Source of the DNA: a virus
Length of the DNA: 64,000 bases
Virus record (IMG/VR): IMGVR_UViG_3300045988_141143
Direction: 5' to 3' (one strand)
Part shown: positions 56,471 through 64,000 of the stretch, in pieces
How positions within the stretch are numbered: position 1 is the first letter of the stretch
Layout of the letters: each line of letters starts with the position of its first letter
Program-made: the position numbers and the translations under genes
Notes under the pieces: generated by a model
Database searches by the model: none
Seen by the model: the letters and a program-made list of their open reading frames with translations, nothing else
What the model was told of the DNA's origin: nothing

Positions 56471-57109
56471 TTACAAGAACACTGGCAGTCTGCGCCACAC
56501 GCCTCCGTTCGGCTGAAACTCCTCATGCCATTCCCGATATTCCACTTCAAACTTTGCACCATAATAAGCCAAACCTTTGAGAGGTAGGCTCTTGATATAT
56601 TTCTCCTGCTCCTCACGAGTCATAAAGTCGTTAGGCATGAGAATGATGCGATTGCTACGGACATGAATAAAGAACTCTATCGCAAAATTACTATTCGTCA
56701 GCATTCTCTTAATCGCGTCATAGTCCCACTTGCCTTTAGGCGAAAAGTTTATGCCATCCACATAAGGGTAAAAACGTTCGGGAAAGTTGTTTATATCCAC
56801 GTTGGCAAACATCCATCTACCAGAAGTGTAGATATAGAGCTGCTTGATGTTAGGATAATCATGGCGCAGGTGTGAGCATATATCTATGATACCAGTCACA
56901 TAGAATGGGTCTCCACCAGTAAGCATAACAGTATGTGCTGCCTTCAACTCCTCTACAGTTGCCACAGGCACCGTATCGAGGTCGTACTGCTTGTTGCAGT
57001 ACACGGGACAGGAGTTAGTACATGTACGGTTAATAATCAAGTGTATGGCTTCCTTATCGGAGCCCGGCTCGTCAGCATATTTACGTTTTGTTTCCATTAA
57101 CTTTTTCAT
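56471..57109 (-). CDS. Radical-SAM-like small protein with atypical Cys spacing
   Basis: INRTCTNSCPVYCNKQ (C-x3-C-x3-C) and VMLTGGDPFYV (GGE/D-P SAM-binding-like). ATG at 57109 is favoured over 57142. Confidence 0.5.
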   Translation of the reverse strand: MKKLMETKRKYADEPGSDKEAIHLIINRTCTNSCPVYCNKQYDLDTVPVATVEELKAAHTVMLTGGDPFYVTGIIDICSHLRHDYPNIKQLYIYTSGRWMFANVDINNFPERFYPYVDGINFSPKGKWDYDAIKRMLTNSNFAIEFFIHVRSNRIILMPNDFMTREEQEKYIKSLPLKGLAYYGAKFEVEYREWHEEFQPNGGVWRRLPVFL

Positions 57110-58409: not shown

Positions 58410-59048
58410 TCACTCATCGGCGGGAAAGCTGATCTTTGCATCTGCCAGTCTTTTCTTGCAGATCACACCAAGGCCTTCAATGACACCCAAACATGAGCTA
58501 CAATCCAAACAGTAAGCATAGCCAATCATGGCGCTAACGGTATTGTATGGGCATTTCTCCCCCTTTATCGCATAAAGGTGTTTGTCCTCCATAAAGGCGT
58601 GGATTTCTTTTTTTAACCCATTCAGTATTTTGTTCTCTCTTTCCAGCTCGTCGCAATGGTCGCGCATCTGCTGCATCTCAACAAGCGACTGCCTTGACTC
58701 GCGCTCCTCCTTACTGCCCAACTGGTGAGCGACATCGTTGTAATCATCCGTGAGCTTATGCACAAGCTGCTCAAGTTCTCCGTTCTTTCTTTCCAGCTCA
58801 TCACAATGGTCGCGCATCTTCATCATCTCGCCAAGCGTCTGCTTGGAAGAGTTTTCATCCTTGCGTGCCTCCAGTCCATGCTGTTGGCGCACGGCATCGT
58901 TGTAATCGTCCATGAGCTGATGCACACGTTGCGTCATCTCAATGTTCTCTGCCTTCAAGTCGGCTACGATATAGGAAAGAGCCAACATACGTTTGTTTTC
59001 TTCTGTTGTCATTGTTTCTTGGGTTTTATGTTTGTTATTCATATTCAT
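58410..59048 (-). CDS. Coiled-coil protein with an internal ~50-aa duplication and Cys-rich C-terminus
   Basis: VHQLMDDYNDAVRQQ...MRDHCDELERKNGEL repeats as VHKLTDDYNDVAHQL...MRDHCDELERENKIL. The C-terminus is CPYN...CLDCSSC. Confidence 0.5.
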   Translation of the reverse strand: MNMNNKHKTQETMTTEENKRMLALSYIVADLKAENIEMTQRVHQLMDDYNDAVRQQHGLEARKDENSSKQTLGEMMKMRDHCDELERKNGELEQLVHKLTDDYNDVAHQLGSKEERESRQSLVEMQQMRDHCDELERENKILNGLKKEIHAFMEDKHLYAIKGEKCPYNTVSAMIGYAYCLDCSSCLGVIEGLGVICKKRLADAKISFPADE

Positions 59049-59214
59049 ATACTATATGCGATGTGGTATTGCCCAGTCCGTCGCGAGGGTCGGTAATACC
59101 TATCCCGACCATTGTCGTCACGGCATTGGCTATCTGCTTGCGCGGTCGACTCTTTACGAGGCCCTTGCCGTCCTTGCCGCTGCGTACCCAACCGATGTAA
59201 TACTTGTCAATCAT
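59035..59214 (-). CDS. Mini-cistron h (59 aa), TRD-like with an IVYEYE* end
   Basis: Translated by hand: MIDKYYIGWVRSGKDGKGLVKSRPRKQIANAVTTMVGIGITDPRDGLGNTTSHIVYEYE*. Its ATG overlaps the upstream stop (ATGATTGA) and its end overlaps the next ATG. Confidence 0.35.
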   Translation of the reverse strand: MIDKYYIGWVRSGKDGKGLVKSRPRKQIANAVTTMVGIGITDPRDGLGNTTSHIVYEYE

Positions 59215-60019
59215 CGGTCTGTGGTATGGTCAGATACATTCGTTCATTAGCCTTGCACGACTCCCCTTGCATTCTACCTGCCTCTAACCCTGCTTTCTTT
59301 AGAGCTTCGTCACGCTCATGCTCCAGTTTTATGCAATATTCAGTCAGGCGATTATATTCTTTCTGCAAGGCGTTGAAATCCTCGCGCAGTTGCTCGGGAG
59401 TGTGAGTTTCTGAATCTAATGGCACAAGACGCTGCTTTCTCTTGTCCCATATTTTCCCGATTCTCTCCACGGCATTGTTGAGAAGTTTTTCTTCCGTAGG
59501 CGTGGCGTATCTCAGTTCGATGCTTACTTCTTCTGCGCATGTACCGAGAAGATCAAGATGGACGTTAGGAGTAAGTTCGTCGCTGTTTTTGCACAAGCAG
59601 GCGTATGTTCTTATCTTGGGATAAGAATCTATAAAATCCACTTCATTGAAAATCACAATGTAGGTCAGGATGTTGCCATCTTTATTTTTAATATCCATTG
59701 CCACGATGTCGCCGGGCTGGAAGTTGAGCACATTCCAATGCCGGTAAAGATGCGAGAGAAACAGCATACACTCTCCTTTTTCAAAGTTCGCTAAACGCCC
59801 ATTGCAACGAAAAAGAATGTAGTGTGCTTCATCCTCGTCAGGAATGGAGGGACCCACCAAAATACCCGAAGCGTTTGTTTCTTTCACATTCAGATAGCCA
59901 AACAAAGGTGAGTAAAGCGTGTCACCTTCAGTCAAGCCGTAGAGGAAGGCTGCCATTTTTTCAATCTCGAATAATTTAGCTTTTATCTCAGGGATGCTTC
60001 TTGTTGCTTTTTGTTTCAT
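59207..60019 (-). CDS. Hypothetical protein (270 aa)
   Basis: ORF with an ATG start. Preceded by the conserved 38-nt junction/uORF block. Confidence 0.45.
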   Translation of the reverse strand: MKQKATRSIPEIKAKLFEIEKMAAFLYGLTEGDTLYSPLFGYLNVKETNASGILVGPSIPDEDEAHYILFRCNGRLANFEKGECMLFLSHLYRHWNVLNFQPGDIVAMDIKNKDGNILTYIVIFNEVDFIDSYPKIRTYACLCKNSDELTPNVHLDLLGTCAEEVSIELRYATPTEEKLLNNAVERIGKIWDKRKQRLVPLDSETHTPEQLREDFNALQKEYNRLTEYCIKLEHERDEALKKAGLEAGRMQGESCKANERMYLTIPQTDD

Positions 60020-60072
60020 AATGTCTCTATTTTAAATTATCACTCATATTCTATCTTGTGATGTTATTCATA

Positions 60073-60363
60073 TTACCCTTTTTCTACTAATTCCCAGGTC
60101 TTTTCATCGTGAGAGGAATAGACGGTATAGGTAAGTTCACAACAGTTCTTGGCTGTCCTCACTTCATGCAACATTTCTCTCGTATAGAAGCAACGCTCCA
60201 TAAGGTACGCCAATGCCTTAAACTGGTCTTGAGTAAGAAAGACCTCCTGCTCGCCGCAAGTGATACCAACATTATCAGTAATGGTAGAATAGAAGAGCTT
60301 TACGTCCTCTTCCTTCCCTGTGTCCTCGTTCTTTACGATTATCTTTTCTGTATTGAAACTCAT
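60073..60363 (-). CDS. Hypothetical protein (96 aa)
   Basis: ORF with an ATG start. Confidence 0.4.
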   Translation of the reverse strand: MSFNTEKIIVKNEDTGKEEDVKLFYSTITDNVGITCGEQEVFLTQDQFKALAYLMERCFYTREMLHEVRTAKNCCELTYTVYSSHDEKTWELVEKG

Positions 60364-60503
60364 AATTTATTTCTCCTTTTATAATTCAACAAACACGCAA
60401 ATTCCACCACTTGCAGCGATCAGTGCGTTTACAAGCTTACTCCCATCCTCGCCATTCGAGCCGATGGCTAACGGGATGCACGGAAATGTAGATGTGGGTC
60501 ATG

Positions 60504-60965
60504 TTACTCTTGAAGATACTCGCCGTATAGTTTCCACTCCTTATCATGGATGTTGCCGACAACCTCAAAGCTCTTCATCTTCTCTTGCAAGAGATCATCT
60601 GGGATGCCGTCTTCAAGACCACCTACGTCAGAGTAGGGATTTTTTACCGTAACGATACCAAAGCAAGCTTTCTTCTCACAATAATACACTACGGCATAGT
60701 AGTCGTCGCAAGTATTGTATTCGATTCTGCTATACGGATATTCGTTCGATCGCAATACGTCGCCTTCATAAATCTCCTTGCCGTTCTTGTCGGTGAAGCC
60801 AGTGAACTGGCATACAGTAGAGGGGTCAACAGCAAACGTAAAAACAGGCCGTCCATCACTGACTGGATTATTTTTTACGAGAGTCTGGTCACCCACATGG
60901 GACAAATCGCCGTAATTCCACTTCCCGTCCTCTATACTCTTAGCCTTAAACTTAATTGTTCTCAT
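60504..60965 (-). CDS. YopX-family protein
   Basis: MRTIKFKAKSIEDGKWNYGD... and C-terminal FEVVGNIHDKEW match the YopX pattern (M-R-x-I-K-F-R-A-W ... V-I-G-N-I-H/Y-D/E-N). Confidence 0.65.
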   Translation of the reverse strand: MRTIKFKAKSIEDGKWNYGDLSHVGDQTLVKNNPVSDGRPVFTFAVDPSTVCQFTGFTDKNGKEIYEGDVLRSNEYPYSRIEYNTCDDYYAVVYYCEKKACFGIVTVKNPYSDVGGLEDGIPDDLLQEKMKSFEVVGNIHDKEWKLYGEYLQE

Positions 60966-60984
60966 AATTCTCTATTTTAAATTG

Positions 60985-61133
60985 TTACTCATATTCTATC
61001 AATACAATGGTGTGCTGTCCGTGCTCGTCGTAGAGTCCTGCCATCCGTCGTAGCGGGCGGACAATGCCGTGGAATACCCCCGACGAGGGCAAAGCTGGGA
61101 TGTGCGTAACACGAAAGGAATTTGGTTACACAT
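60985..61133 (-). CDS. Mini-cistron d (about 49 aa), TRD-like, frame-disrupted as assembled
   Basis: ATG inside the TATGTGTAA junction gives MCNQIPFVLRTSQLCPRRGYSTALSARYDGWQ. The continuation GLYDEHGQHTIVLIEYE* is in the -1 frame. Span is 149 nt (2 mod 3); the break is near 61035-61041. Confidence 0.35.
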
Positions 61134-61296
61134 AATCGGGATTGAAAAATATGCCATTTACACCTTCAATATCGATGGTGTTTCTGTTACAGTCAAAATC
61201 AGCATCACAAAACTCGTCGCCATTGACTGTTACTTCCAATTCGCCATGTTCTTTACGCAAAAGTTCAAGGCGGTTTATAAGTTCGCTTATATTCAT
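61126..61296 (-). CDS. Small ORF (56 aa), not TRD-like
   Basis: Translated by hand: MNISELINRLELLRKEHGELEVTVNGDEFCDADFDCNRNTIDIEGVNGIFFNPDYV*. Below the ORF-track length cut-off. Confidence 0.35.
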   Translation of the reverse strand: MNISELINRLELLRKEHGELEVTVNGDEFCDADFDCNRNTIDIEGVNGIFFNPDYV

Positions 61297-61306
61297 ATTA
61301 TTTTCT

Positions 61307-61480
61307 TTACAAATATTCTATCAATGCCATATTATCCTTGCCTACTGACGTAAGGGTGTTGGTTGTACTTCCCCCGTTTATCTCCATTCGCTGACAGAAG
61401 CGTCCGTTGGAGGGATGCTTGCGGTCGGACGGATTGTCGGGGTCACGGCCTCGGAAGGCTGCTATGCGAAAGTGTAGCAT
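61307..61480 (-). CDS. Mini-cistron c (57 aa), RGR-type TRD-like
   Basis: MLHFRIAAFRGRDPDNPSDRKHPSNGRFCQRMEINGGSTTNTLTSVGKDNMALIEYL*. This is part of ORF track 61307..61564. Confidence 0.45.
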   Translation of the reverse strand: MLHFRIAAFRGRDPDNPSDRKHPSNGRFCQRMEINGGSTTNTLTSVGKDNMALIEYL

Positions 61481-61644
61481 AGGAGGTTGTCTTTTGTTAC
61501 TGTTGTTATCGAATTGCTCCACGCCCACGGACTTGGGCGGTGATACTTGTCGCTGTATTTGCACCCTCCCCGGTCGCCATGTTCACGACGGAAGGTTTTG
61601 GCTTCCTCGGTGCGGTAGTGGACGAGGACGGAACGATTAATCAT
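61462..61644 (-). CDS. Mini-cistron A (60 aa), RTEEAK-type TRD-like
   Basis: MINRSVLVHYRTEEAKTFRREHGDRGGCKYSDKYHRPSPWAWSNSITTVTKDNLLCYTFA*. Confidence 0.45.
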   Translation of the reverse strand: MINRSVLVHYRTEEAKTFRREHGDRGGCKYSDKYHRPSPWAWSNSITTVTKDNLLCYTFA

Positions 61645-61789
61645 ACTCTATCAATATTTTCGGTTTATCCACGTCGTGACCTTTACCTCCCCCGGCTATG
61701 CACAAGGCTATGCCGCGCGGCGACACGATGATGCCGTTCTGCGAGGGGCTGTAGGAGCCGAGGATGATGGGGCGAGGGTTGTTATTCAT
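61637..61789 (-). CDS. Mini-cistron e (50 aa), HhaI-type TRD-like
   Basis: Translated by hand: MNNNPRPIILGSYSPSQNGIIVSPRGIALCIAGGGKGHDVDKPKILIEYD*. Compare M.HhaI QGERIYSTRGIAITLSAYGGGIFAKTGGYLV. Confidence 0.5.
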   Translation of the reverse strand: MNNNPRPIILGSYSPSQNGIIVSPRGIALCIAGGGKGHDVDKPKILIEYD

Positions 61790-61928
61790 ATATTACAATT
61801 ACGCCAGTGGCTTTGAAATTTGCTCCTTGGGTTGAAACGTCAAGAACATCGTATGCACCCTTCTTGAAATAATTGGCTTTGATAGTGCGTGATGTGCCAT
61901 CGGATTCGGTGTTGAAAGGGAATGTCAT
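61782..61928 (-). CDS. Mini-cistron g (48 aa), TRD-like
   Basis: Translated by hand: MTFPFNTESDGTSRTIKANYFKKGAYDVLDVSTQGANFKATGVIVIYE*. ATGA overlap with mini-cistron f. Confidence 0.4.
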   Translation of the reverse strand: MTFPFNTESDGTSRTIKANYFKKGAYDVLDVSTQGANFKATGVIVIYE

Positions 61929-62066
61929 AATTCTACTGCTACAAAGAACACGTCGCTGCAATCGGTGCGCGACATGATAGTTACTGCTATACCGTGAAAT
62001 GCTCCGTTGAAGCGTTCTGCGCTGAACATCGAGGCAGGGCAGGTGAGCAAACTACCCCCCAATCAT
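61925..62066 (-). CDS. Mini-cistron f (about 46 aa), TRD-like, with a G6 tract after the ATG
   Basis: ATGATTGGGGGGTAG: the ATG frame stops after the G6 run (62055-62060). The frame from the TTG at 62062 reads LGGSLLTCPASMFSAERFNGAFHGIAVTIMSRTDCSDVFFVAVEL*. G5 or G8 would put the ATG in frame. Confidence 0.4.
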
Positions 62067-62103
62067 ATCAGCTATGATACGGATTACACGGTCGGGTGGA
62101 TTA

Positions 62104-63419
62104 TCAGTTCTCATTCTTCCTCTCCATATTCTCCTTGAACATTTCTCCGAAACCATCCCAATAATGAGCGTCCATCCATTCGGGCGAGGATAAAAACTGC
62201 TCATACATCATTGTCGCAGGTATCGTCCGTAGGTATTTCTCGCAAGCCTTAACGTCTTTGTCCCACAAATCCATCCGCTCCATTTCTATCTGAAAATACG
62301 TCTTGAGGAACATTGCCGCCTCATGTGTCGGTGGCAGGTCGAATTGAAGGAATAAGGCATTGTCGGAGTCGTTTGCCTTGAGGAACTTGCTCACGGCATC
62401 GTCCTTGAGGAAATAGCGGTCAGACACTTCCTCTTCGAGCACGTCTTCCAATCGGGTAAGCAGCTCGAAAGGTTCTGGGAACTGATAGTCGAATGCCACG
62501 TCTCGGCGCATGGAGAGGCAGAACACACGGTCGCGGTTTTGTGGCACACCGTAGTTCTTGGCGTTGAGTCGCGTCCAACGGCTCACATAGCCGAGCGACG
62601 AGAGTTTGTCGAGCCACTTCTGAAAGTCTGGCAAGAACTTCTGGCTTACCAGTGCCGCCACGTTCTCCTGCAAGAGATACTTCGGGCGAAGCACCTCCAC
62701 AGCATCCGCCACACGCCAAAGCAGTGCGCTTCGGGTGTCGCTGCCCTCCTGCAAGCCCATTTGCTTGCCCGCCTGACTGATGTCCTGGCAAGGCGAGGAA
62801 TAGGTGAAGAGGTCTACTTCGCGGCCTTCGAGCGAGCTTTCCACCTCGTGCCAGTCAATCTTGGTGATGTCGCCCAGGGCGCAGTCGGCAAACTGAGGGA
62901 AGACGAGGTTGTGCATCTGACAGGCGTATTTGTCGATGTCGCTCCATCCTATACATGTCCATCGGAAGTCGGGATGCCACTCGCGGAGCACATCGGCTGC
63001 CATAAGCTGCGAGTCGTAGCCGAAGAACGTGGTAAGGAATATCTTCTCCTCGTTCTTGTTGGCTGCGGTGGGCGGCAGGGCGGGTAATGTGTCTTCGAGG
63101 TCGTCGAAGAGCGAGAGTTGCTTTTGCTTACGAGGTTTGGGCGTAGGATAGAAAAGTTGCTCGTAGATGTGGGCCAACACGTCCACCACGATGCTGTTTC
63201 CGGCTTGCTTGTACTGCTGTGAGGCAGATATAGCCATGTCTTCGGGCTTGCCCTTGCCTTTCCAGTCGGGCAGACGTTCGGCTGCTTGAGCATTGCTGCT
63301 CTGCATCGTGCCGATTACATTGTCACGAACGCCATCAGACGAAAACACTCCTTGGGTGTGAGCTTGCGGATGGCATAGCTCTTGATGGTGCGGTCGGTGA
63401 AATTGAGTTTTGTAATCAT
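62104..63419 (-). CDS. C5-cytosine DNA methyltransferase core, circularly permuted (motifs IX-X-I-IV-VI-VIII), one frame break as assembled
   Basis: AIRKLTPKECFRLMG (IX), QYKQAGNSIVVDVL (X), FLTTFFGYDSQ (I-like), FTYSSPCQDIS (IV), LLQENV (VI), GVPQNRDRVF (VIII). The 34-codon ORF from the ATG at 63419 joins ORF 62104..63348 if one base is added near 63330-63335. Confidence 0.8.
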
Positions 63420-63432
63420 ATTGTTGCTGTTA

Positions 63433-63585
63433 TTATTCGTATTCTATTAAAATTCCTGGAGCATGATTATCTGCCTTGACGCATCTATTTATTCCTTCTA
63501 ACGGAGGTCTTTTATAGTCAGGCGAAACATTCCAATAAATGCTCGATATTGCATGAGCGTGATAGTCTATTGTGATGTTATTCAT
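63433..63585 (-). CDS. Mini-cistron 3 (50 aa), TRD-like
   Basis: Translated by hand: MNNITIDYHAHAISSIYWNVSPDYKRPPLEGINRCVKADNHAPGILIEYE*. Ends 13 nt before the MTase core ATG. Confidence 0.4.
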   Translation of the reverse strand: MNNITIDYHAHAISSIYWNVSPDYKRPPLEGINRCVKADNHAPGILIEYE

Positions 63586-63709
63586 ATTCTTCAATCAAAA
63601 ATACATTTTGCTGCCACGAGTTGATTGTTACGGTCGGGCAAACGTCTGTACCTAATCGACCTCCATCGTTATTGCCACGAGGATATTGGTAGAAGTCAAG
63701 ATTAATCAT
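63578..63709 (-). CDS. Mini-cistron 2 (43 aa), TRD-like
   Basis: Translated by hand: MINLDFYQYPRGNNDGGRLGTDVCPTVTINSWQQNVFLIEEYE*. Bracketed by 19-nt identical direct repeats. Confidence 0.45.
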   Translation of the reverse strand: MINLDFYQYPRGNNDGGRLGTDVCPTVTINSWQQNVFLIEEYE

Positions 63710-63718
63710 ATTCTTCAA

Positions 63719-63976
63719 TCAAAAGAACGCTTCAGATTGCAAGTCGCCAATATAACAATAACGCTGCACTTCGTATTCGCTGATAAACATTCGCCAATTC
63801 TGTTCGTCATGATCGAAATGTTCATGTACGAAGCATGTACCACCGAGTCGCCAACAGAGAAGCGATCCTATGCAATGCGGTTGTTCTCTGGCTGGATGCC
63901 ATAACTGAACGATATTACGATATTCGGCTCTTTTATCCGTTTCTACATCGTCAGACAAGGAATCCTTAAAGCTCAC
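63719..63976 (-). CDS. Hypothetical protein (about 85 aa)
   Basis: ORF track entry. The start is uncertain. Confidence 0.35.
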   Translation of the reverse strand: MSFKDSLSDDVETDKRAEYRNIVQLWHPAREQPHCIGSLLCWRLGGTCFVHEHFDHDEQNWRMFISEYEVQRYCYIGDLQSEAFF

Positions 63977-64000
63977 GCCTTTTTTATCGGAATCGACAAA

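Follow-up and report, generated by a model that had tools for sequence, protein, structure and literature searches.

Why should one small gene after another on the same strand of a viral genome end, and the next begin, within almost the same 18 nucleotides (nt), even though the modules so joined are unrelated in sequence? The question is raised by the minus strand between 59.0 and 63.7 kb of the IMG/VR virus record IMGVR_UViG_3300045988_141143; the whole stretch of 64,000 nt that was analysed is referred to as the window. A first-pass annotation had drawn attention to the repeated stop/start junction, but missed what is the main content of the locus: the mini-cistrons are target-recognition domains (TRDs) of a DNA methyltransferase, and their neighbour is a permuted methyltransferase core devoid of a TRD. 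Nine small cistrons and one deleted remnant lie in the block, and each cistron is a single TRD module of 43–63 residues. The answer which we favour, and which the sequence evidence makes rather probable in our view, is that the block constitutes a multispecific C5-cytosine methyltransferase in pieces, whose separately translated TRD mini-subunits would act in trans on one common core. Homology of the cassettes to TRDs, purifying selection, nucleotide-level constraint at the junctions, cassette turnover, breakpoints at the junctions, and fusions to both termini of the core were all observed.

In the window, the core is distributed over two open reading frames (ORFs): ORF 62104..63348 matches Pfam family PF00145 (E=1.3e-45, 156.7 bits), and motif IX sits in a separate ORF of 34 residues, 63315..63419 (PF00145, E=0.01). 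The motifs follow one another in the circularly permuted order IX (AIRKLTPKECFRLM), X (QAGNSIVV), I (FFGYDS), IV (SPCQD), VI (ENV) and VIII (QNRDR), and IV SPCQD, VI QENV, VIII QNRDR, IX RKLTPKECFRLMG and X AGNSIVV are all present and invariant. A search with the core protein returned 7861 proteins at E ≤ 1e-5, and a scan of viral contigs with it provided the relatives considered throughout, namely 80 viral contigs with cassette arrays whose cores are 65–99% identical to the query; megablast of positions 58800–64000 against deposited phage genomes gave no match. In the relatives checked, the core is a single ORF of 436–442 residues with motifs IX, X and IV in one frame, that is, IX–X precede I–VIII within one ORF as is typical for enzymes of the M.BssHII type, an arrangement that is interrupted in the window. 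When the core is compared with the conventional enzyme P0154, only IX–X (core residues 15–108) and IV–VIII plus the segment following VIII (residues 182–360) can be aligned, and the TRD region of P0154 (127 residues, about 213–339) is left without a counterpart. Hence, the core has no TRD, and the domain which PF00145 proteins usually carry between motifs VIII and IX of the same chain is missing. Motif VIII is followed by a C-terminal extension of ∼75 residues (from about residue 361), which is probably helical and for which no significant match was found.

The TRDs are found in the small cistrons, hereafter called cassettes and, where they belong to recurrent families, designated by F numbers. 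A search with the concatenated cassettes of the window yielded 32 significant matches among 5.8 billion proteins; all 32 are PF00145 proteins, most of them with ∼480 residues. Cassette F11 aligns to a TRD in the variable region (residues 287–330, E=7e-11) of P0032, a multispecific enzyme of conventional motif order, and cassette A aligns to the last TRD of the same protein (E=6e-4) with FLIEEY opposite FLISSY, directly before RIRKLTP; the cassette thus ends exactly where motif IX of an ordinary enzyme begins. In the whole database, pooled representatives of families absent from the window match P0153 (E=1.5e-12) and P0154 (E=6.3e-6). P0153 contains at least seven in-line TRDs, each ending hydrophobic-hydrophobic-Glu (h-h-E), among which counterparts of F11, F13, F05, F06 and TRD5 (RTEEAK...TVTKDN type) can be recognised by inspection, TRD5 resembling the in-line TRD RMVRTEEGKALRKDYE...NTLSTVQKDNIVLE; in P0154 an F05-type TRD is located directly before motif IX. 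The cassettes therefore share TRD homology with the multispecific enzymes, but not the tandem arrangement of TRDs in one chain: in the window, every module is closed by a stop codon and the one after it is opened by an ATG of its own, and separate, stop-ended modules are likewise found in the 80 relatives. Pfam assigned no family to the mini-cistrons, because TRDs are too short and variable, and the concatenated cassettes retrieved only a chance match to a nanobody among PDB chains.

Natural fusions link cassettes to the core. In P0001 and P0004, F07 and F00, respectively, continue the C-terminus of a permuted core in frame, with the Met of the cassette retained, and an F07 TRD at the core C-terminus is also displayed by most of the remaining 31 matches to the concatenated cassettes. 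Conversely, the F00 TRD of P0203 precedes IX–X of a permuted core, and in P0155 two cassettes are joined in frame (TRD–TRD). Loci with fusions retain additional free cassettes. An exhaustive search with F00 of the window gave 52 representative homologues, P0203 and P0155 among them, all of 35–162 residues, which indicates that the free form is the norm for F00. These findings bear on the idea that the mini-proteins work independently of the core, for example by inhibiting host restriction enzymes or methyltransferases, by serving as decoys for them, or by partnering with a host methyltransferase. Conserved small proteins extending over at least 4.7 kb amid unrelated early-type genes such as YopX would accord with such a role, as would the fact that some cassettes are far from the core gene. 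Yet cassettes accompany a TRD-less core in every locus recovered (an observation that is partly circular, the loci having been fetched via the core), they are naturally fused to both core ends, and their homologues are TRDs working inside methyltransferases, so that we regard a core-independent function as improbable.

The cassettes behave as genuine genes (Table 1). In the window and the 80 related loci, ORFs of 25–130 residues having the characteristic C-terminus number 530 on the gene strand and 2 on the opposite strand; the former value is a minimum, since some families escape the search pattern. They cluster into 17 recurrent families, and the ratio of nonsynonymous to synonymous substitution rates (dN/dS), calculated in each family's own frame with overlap codons excluded, is 0.06–0.43 in all 17, as expected for purifying selection. 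It could be argued that the cassettes are the decaying fragments of a once-continuous multispecific gene and the junction a remnant repeat, considering that core, F01 and F02 are frameshifted in the window, that one cassette is reduced to 6 codons, and that some relatives, e.g., L139, contain split cassettes. The dN/dS values and the strand bias of the intact ORFs led us to reject this view, and the start/stop architecture is moreover kept across at least 80 phages with cores that have diverged as stated above; the chance that the array is debris appears to be negligible.

Table 1. Cassettes, boundaries and associated short ORFs of the methyltransferase block (positions in the window).
Feature	Position	Strand	Peptide or sequence	Remarks
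TRD cassette A, 43 aa	63578..63709	(-)	...GTDVCPTVTINSWQQNVFLIEEYE	ATG in junction copy 63702-63722; aligns to last TRD of P0032
TRD cassette B, family F08, 50 aa	63433..63585	(-)	end GILIEYE	start overlaps cassette A stop by 8 nt; family in 28 loci, dN/dS 0.25
Circularly permuted C5-cytosine methyltransferase core without TRD	62104..63419	(-)		split into two ORFs here by 1-nt G deletion at 63334
Core/F01 boundary	62104	(-)		longer overlap
TRD cassette F01, 63 aa in relatives	61925..62114	(-)	MRTDNPPDRV...ITIMSRTDCSDVFFVAVEL	ATG overlaps core gene end; broken here; family in 54 loci, dN/dS 0.23
F01/F03 boundary	61925	(-)	GAATTATGA	4-nt ATGA overlap; next ORF in other frame
TRD cassette F03, 48 aa	61782..61928	(-)	...SRTIKANYFKKG...GVIVIYE	ATGA overlap with F01 stop; dN/dS 0.15
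TRD cassette F00, 50 aa	61637..61789	(-)	MNNNPRPIILGSYSPSQNG...IALCIAGGGKGHDVDKPKILIEYD	fused to cores in P0004, P0203; dN/dS 0.07
TRD cassette TRD5, 60 aa	61462..61644	(-)	...RTEEAKTFRREHGD...SNSITTVTKDNLLCYTFA	19-nt overlap (61462-61480) with F11 start
TRD5/F11 boundary	61462	(-)		longer overlap
TRD cassette F11, 57 aa	61307..61480	(-)	...IAAFRGRDPDNPSDR...TTNTLTSVGKDNMALIEYL	aligns to TRD of P0032; dN/dS 0.14
56-aa ORF/F02 boundary	61126	(-)	ATGTGTAA	
TRD cassette F02, 49 aa in relatives	60985..61133	(-)	...RRGYSTALSARYDGWAGLYDEHGQHTIVLIEYE	broken here; perfect junction at 60985-61002; family in 47 loci, dN/dS 0.10
6-codon ORF, leader copy 1	60972..60992	(-)	MSNNLK	opened by junction ATG; stop 6 nt before YopX ATG (60965)
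Cassette remnant	60051..60071	(-)	MNNITR-stop	first 16 nt of F08-type cassette fused directly to junction end
6-codon ORF, leader copy 2	60027..60047	(-)	MSDNLK	stop 7 nt before ATG of 270-aa gene (60019)
270-aa gene/F07 boundary	59207	(-)	ATGATTGA	8-nt overlap
TRD cassette F07, 59 aa	59035..59214	(-)	MIDKYYIGWVRSGKDG...IANAVTTMVG...TSHIVYEYE	start overlaps stop of 270-aa gene by 8 nt; dN/dS 0.15; end junction holds ATG of 212-aa gene

The sequence by which these modules are joined is far more frequent in the window than expected. Allowing up to 3 mismatches, TTGATWGARTATGANTAA occurs 8 times versus 0.53 expected, i.e., at ∼15 times the chance frequency and with none of 100 shuffles reaching 8, and 5 of the 8 matches are located in the minus-strand block; for the core motif TATGANTAA, 8 matches are found where 1.87 would be expected, and 7 of these belong to the same block and strand. 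Across the related loci, the junction is found almost exclusively on the gene strand. The cistron 5' of the junction ends with hydrophobic-hydrophobic-E-Y-[ED]-stop, and the next ATG lies inside TATGA, which yields an overlap of 8 nt. Among the 530 cassette ends, an ATG is located 5 nt before the stop in 295, 1 nt before it (ATGA) in 61 and 11 nt before it in 48; at the others, the start is slightly downstream or there is no ATG nearby. Stop and start thus overlap or are nearly adjacent (offsets −5, −1 and −11), as is characteristic of coupled gene pairs.

The peptide end by itself does not account for the conservation. Where the junction encodes Leu, TTG or TTA is used in 83 of 99 cases (background 26%); ATC is found for only 3 of 125 Ile residues (background 44%), GAA for 122 of 181 Glu residues (46.5%), and TAT for 148 of 163 Tyr residues (55.6%). 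The junction is therefore constrained as a nucleotide sequence, toward an A/T-rich and C-free composition, and the synonymous-site check which the first-pass annotation had called for does reveal an excess of constraint. Its synonymous sites match the A/T-rich start context, free of Shine-Dalgarno (SD) sequences, of the phage's ordinary genes: for 43 ordinary long genes of the window, A+T is mostly 65–85% at positions −20 to −1 (52% overall), A occupies −3 in 65% and T occupies −1 in 53%, and an SD-like motif is present in 3 of the 43. For SD-less initiation in Bacteroidetes, it has been reported that A at −3 promotes initiation and that additional AUGs close to starts are avoided (PMC6847099). 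The choice of the Tyr codon, too, follows the presence of a start: of 21 junctions with TAC, 15 precede the core, which has its own ATG, and at 160 of 188 junctions with TAT, the overlapping ATG opens an ORF of at least 25 residues. Finally, 166 of 289 unique junctions have a stop in every frame within their last 21 nt, whereas a synonymous-codon null averages 83 and never exceeds 102; this closure may, however, be a by-product of A/T richness.

Of the translational roles that had been put forward for the junction, termination-reinitiation in a host with weak SD usage appears to be the most likely, considering the overlapping ATG in most junctions, the SD-less start context and the TAC/TAT pattern. 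Termination-reinitiation requires short overlaps, which are enriched among co-directional genes for subunits of one heteromeric complex (PMC6728339, PMC10666635). The overlaps usual for coupled genes are 4 nt (ATGA) or 1 nt, whereas here an 8-nt overlap, ATGANTAA, dominates and lies within a conserved peptide end; a single genome can contain as many as about a dozen such junctions.

The second role proposed, a +1 frameshift at TAT GAN TAA that would make core–TRD or TRD–TRD chains, is not supported. In its favour, a stop codon in the A site is a classical stimulator of +1 shifting, as in prfB; 343 cassette ends (offset −5 or −11) have the downstream ORF in the +1 frame; and chains are tolerated, as seen from in-frame fusions such as P0155. 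Programmed shifting would, however, call for a constant frame and a shift-prone P-site codon, and neither is observed: 61 cassette ends (ATGA) place the following ORF in the −1 frame, many of the others have separate downstream starts in any frame, and the last sense codon varies (GAT 61, GAA 46, GAC 32, GCT 13, GAG 12, AAA 11) without any of these allowing the P-site tRNA to re-pair at +1. Further, the +1 frame is shut by TGA or TAG just upstream, which leaves a span of 9 nt; the ATG would be superfluous, yet is conserved and tracks need; and no sensible order could result from joining upstream and downstream cassettes across the core. We thus reject recoding and consider it very unlikely.

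With reinitiation at the junction as the preferred reading, the individual boundaries of the window can be inspected one by one. All nine that had been listed could be located by translation, at 59035, 60040-60057, 60985, 61307, 61637, 61782, 63433, 63578 and 63702. The overlapping ATG attributed to each of them is absent from two: the junction at 61307-61324 has the peptide end LIEYL (TATTTGTAA), and the one at 63433-63450 has the Tyr codon TAC (TACGAATAA) and is followed by the next gene's own ATG 13 nt past the stop. At 63702-63722 the junction DNA is indeed present, but the ORF upstream enters it in a frame other than that of LIEEYE and terminates with ...EAFF at a TGA within the junction. 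The boundaries F01/F03, 56-aa ORF/F02, 270-aa gene/F07, core/F01 and TRD5/F11 (Table 1) had not been listed. At TRD5/F11, the 19-nt overlap (...KDNLLCYTFA-stop over MLHFRIAAFRGRD) is conserved in L064, L065, L072 and L090, and looks like an old frameshift within a double TRD that has since been fixed.

The leader block described for the YopX gene (PF09643, E=2e-13) and the 270-aa gene is likewise present: 33 nt from GATAGAATATGAGT to AAATAGAGA are shared with 2 mismatches, and both copies contain the 6-codon upstream ORF. In many relatives, where an ordinary gene follows the last cassette, the junction ATG opens a very short ORF, encoding other short peptides, which ends 1–14 nt before the ATG of the next gene or overlaps it, and the leaders preceding YopX and the 270-aa gene are a case of this arrangement after a run of cassettes. 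The apparent empty cassette, too, could be reproduced: ATGAATAACATCACAA at 60071 matches the beginning of 63433..63585 without a mismatch and runs straight into GATAGAATATGAGT. This remnant is also present in L064, and in L065 the same 96-aa gene precedes intact cassettes. Remnant 60051..60071 and the junction copy at 63702-63722 that is read in another frame look like scars of cassette exchange.

Comparison of the relatives supports the proposal that the junction is a recombination hot-spot for cassette exchange: it recurs in at least 80 related phage contigs, their cassette repertoires differ, and breakpoints concentrate at the junctions. What would have spoken against the junction as a signal, that is, neither excess synonymous conservation nor cassette turnover, is contradicted on both counts. 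The loci contain 1–13 cassettes each, and presence or absence of a given family varies between phages, the relative order being roughly constant (F09, F12, F05, F16, F08, F04, F13 upstream of the core; F04, F03, F14, F01, F00, F11, F02, F10, F07, F06 downstream). When blocks of at least 88% identity between loci are considered, 49% of their endpoints, which are not independent of one another, fall within 15 nt of a junction, compared with 9% of random positions (median distance 17 versus 120 nt). An invertible shufflon, in which cassettes occur in both orientations between inverted repeats, is not what is seen; the ORFs of the 81 loci are co-oriented as described above.

Turnover of this kind might also be expected if the free cassettes were a silent reservoir, with only the TRD fused in frame to the core being active and the others constituting a library moved into the fused expression site, as in pilS/pilE or vls systems. 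The natural core–TRD and TRD–core fusions, the clustering of breakpoints at junctions, and the further cassette arrays kept by loci with a fusion are all in line with this scenario, and occasional use would likewise result in purifying selection. Nonetheless, the core is almost always unfused in the 80 loci (...KENMERK.. and then a stop), so that a strongly conserved enzyme would be left without any TRD. Each cassette keeps an ATG and a stop, which a silent library does not need; TAT is retained where its ATG opens the next cassette, and TAC is found where it does not; and all 52 representative F00 homologues are small. A silent reservoir therefore strikes us as unlikely, although it is the alternative to which we would assign the greatest weight.

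The favoured explanation, a methyltransferase in pieces, can then be formulated as follows. Each module ends with the conserved last strand of the TRD (hydrophobic-hydrophobic-Glu-Tyr-Asp/Glu, or V-E-L) and a stop, and the next ATG overlaps it, mostly as TATGANTAA. The junction would thereby be subject to three constraints, i.e., those imposed by the C-terminal peptide, by the stop codon, and by the start region of the next cistron, which is required to be A/T-rich, C-free and SD-less with A at −3; since few sequences are left when all three apply simultaneously, unrelated cassettes would come to share nearly the same 18 nt. Ribosomes finishing one cassette would reinitiate at the overlapping ATG and produce separate mini-proteins, each of which may dock in trans between the C-terminus of the core (past motif VIII) and its N-terminus (motif IX), the position that a TRD occupies in the canonical fold, and thus provide the core with one sequence specificity. 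A phage so equipped would methylate many sites and escape many host restriction systems, and the shared junction would provide the microhomology for gain, loss and swapping of modules in any frame. Action in trans is plausible because split and permuted C5-methyltransferases are active, be they natural (M.AquI, M.EcoHK31I, M.BssHII) or engineered (PMC3404938, PMC5944983), and because the short TRDs of multispecific Bacillus phage enzymes are independent of each other (PMC12707154), as is also established from the work of the Trautner laboratory.

Several known systems invite comparison. According to PMC12707154, which cites Trautner et al. (1996), multispecific phage C5-methyltransferases combine one core with several short TRDs and protect against many restriction systems. 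The enzymes of Bacillus phages SPR, phi3T and rho11s are alike to the present locus in having homologous TRDs (via P0032 and P0153) and the h-h-E module end. Their TRDs are, however, arranged in tandem in one polypeptide between motifs VIII and IX, whereas the window has every TRD as a separate cistron, complete with ATG and stop, and a permuted core devoid of a TRD, and modules are located on both sides of the core gene and amid unrelated genes. The permuted motif order is shared with M.BssHII, M.Alw26I, M2.Eco31I, M.Esp3I and M2.BsaI, and the fused proteins P0203 (TRD–IX–X...) and P0001/P0004 (...VIII–TRD) represent the type H and type J topologies of permuted enzymes, respectively; yet enzymes of the M.BssHII type have the TRD in the same chain and a single specificity, whereas here the TRD is cut at both ends and available in many alternative versions. 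With M.AquI, M.EcoHK31I and the engineered split forms of M.HhaI, M.SssI and M.MpeI, the locus would have in common that activity arises from separate polypeptides, the enzyme of the window presumably being heteromeric as well. Those enzymes consist of two fixed fragments with one specificity, the small fragment carrying IX–X or IX, in contrast to the bare TRD pieces of the window, which form an array of interchangeable specificity subunits.

The Type I specificity subunit HsdS is likewise a separate polypeptide that directs a shared methyltransferase, and recombination of its cassettes alters specificity (PMC12707154). The similarity is one of concept only, as Type I systems comprise unrelated adenine methyltransferases with TRDs of ∼150 residues and helical spacers. 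In addition, HsdS shuffling employs inverted repeats and recombinases, whereas the cassettes considered here are co-oriented (530 versus 2) and several could be expressed together. Free-standing TRD cistrons were not found to be described in the literature searched, which lacks most subscription journals, the classic papers of Trautner among them, so that a prior description is possible.

Unusual motif arrangements were encountered in other proteins as well. P0154 (430 residues) begins at motif IV and, following motif X and an LFDDL linker, ends with the motif I-like sequence FFSGIGAF; either the protein is permuted in a second way, or it results from a gene call spanning a tandem array. The core of the window has the same LFDDL linker between its motifs X and I. 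In L148 (Bacillus phage BC-VP, OR725122.1, 74133-77103), three C5-methyltransferase genes are arranged in tandem, and IX–X at the end of one gene abut I–VIII of the next, such that the tblastn match of the permuted core spans the boundary in one piece. Such Bacillus phage matches, obtained by tblastn against deposited phages and permuted in appearance, were therefore rejected as permuted cores, being tandem conventional methyltransferase genes. It is plausible that a tandem of this type was the precursor from which the permuted core arose by fusion and truncation.

The copy of the locus in the window is not intact. Compared with L064, which is 98–99% identical, it contains contracted G-runs at 63334 (core, GGG to GG), 62055-62060 (F01, G8 to G6) and 61043 (F02, GGG to GG), two of the three within the context GATGG(G)C, and these break core, F01 and F02. 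Large genes in other parts of the window are intact, so that a general problem with homopolymer errors is not evident; the contractions may represent assembly error, phase variation or real inactivation. The poly-G tract of F01 consists of G6, G7, G8 or G9 among the relatives (L064, L094, L120 and others), with only G8 being in frame, and still other relatives have an interrupted, stable sequence, AGGGGTGG, at this position. F01 may hence be a phase-variable specificity module. The closest relatives were found in Prevotella bins of metagenome-assembled genomes (MAGs) and others in Clostridia bins; the host is probably Prevotella, an assignment that we regard as weak.

A number of points weigh against a methyltransferase in pieces. 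First, motif I reads FSGYDS (FFGYDS in the window, ∼63020-63037), the second Gly of FxGxG being replaced by Asp. This Asp is invariant across 36 homologues, while conventional relatives such as P0032 read FSGYGS, and activity of the core is thus not guaranteed. Second, separate translation and action in trans are both steps that we infer, and we know of no C5-methyltransferase having its TRD as a free polypeptide of ∼50 residues, the known split fragments being much larger. Third, the AlphaFold2 model obtained for the fusion P0001 with an alignment of 36 sequences is poor (mean predicted local distance difference test score, pLDDT, 47; predicted template modelling score, pTM, 0.37), although helices are predicted with moderate confidence for residues 350–430. 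Fourth, an overlap of 8 nt is unusual for coupling, 4 nt and 1 nt being by far the commonest (PMC10666635). Fifth, clustering of breakpoints at junctions might in part reflect the mosaicism which phages ordinarily exhibit at gene boundaries, large as the observed effect is. Finally, the copy in the window would be inactive if the indels in core, F01 and F02 are real, and the assignment to a Bacteroidota host rests on MAG bins that disagree with one another.

Two further ORFs near the block may be mentioned. In the 212-aa ORF 58410-59048, whose start lies at the last junction, an internal stretch of ∼50 residues is duplicated in tandem (repeats ...DDYNDAVRQQHG...MRDHCDELERKN and ...DDYNDVAHQLG...MRDHCDELEREN); the protein has a coiled-coil-like look, and Pfam gave no family above threshold for it. 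Another ORF of 212 residues, 56471-57109, has a Cys cluster close to its N-terminus (CTNSCPVYC) that is reminiscent of radical-SAM-type proteins, and yielded no Pfam match at E ≤ 0.01.

C5-cytosine methyltransferases are regarded as single-chain enzymes with a built-in specificity domain, the known exceptions being a few permuted enzymes and two that consist of two fixed subunits. The locus described here follows the logic of the multispecific phage C5-methyltransferases, but without the tandem single-chain TRDs of that family, and the system is common. For the more complete picture, in which gut phages would possess a two-component C5 enzyme, its permuted core being served by as many as a dozen or so interchangeable trans subunits of ∼50 residues, with the junction as adaptor and possibly a poly-G switch in one module, we judge the chances to be about even. 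As a universal adaptor, the junction would close three frames, restart translation, and offer microhomology for the swapping of modules; it represents a clear natural case of a sequence on which the demands of a peptide end, a stop codon, SD-less initiation and recombination act together. The families to which the cassettes belong also imply that dozens of real small-protein families are unannotated in phage genomes. If the proposal is true, a minimal autonomous TRD unit would be defined, natural variants of which could be paired with recognition motifs by methylome sequencing, and one core with plug-in specificity peptides would provide a scaffold for programmable writers of 5-methylcytosine. 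It would further constitute the cytosine-methyltransferase counterpart of the Type I HsdS principle, and show that the methylation by which phages counter restriction can diversify in a fast and modular fashion.

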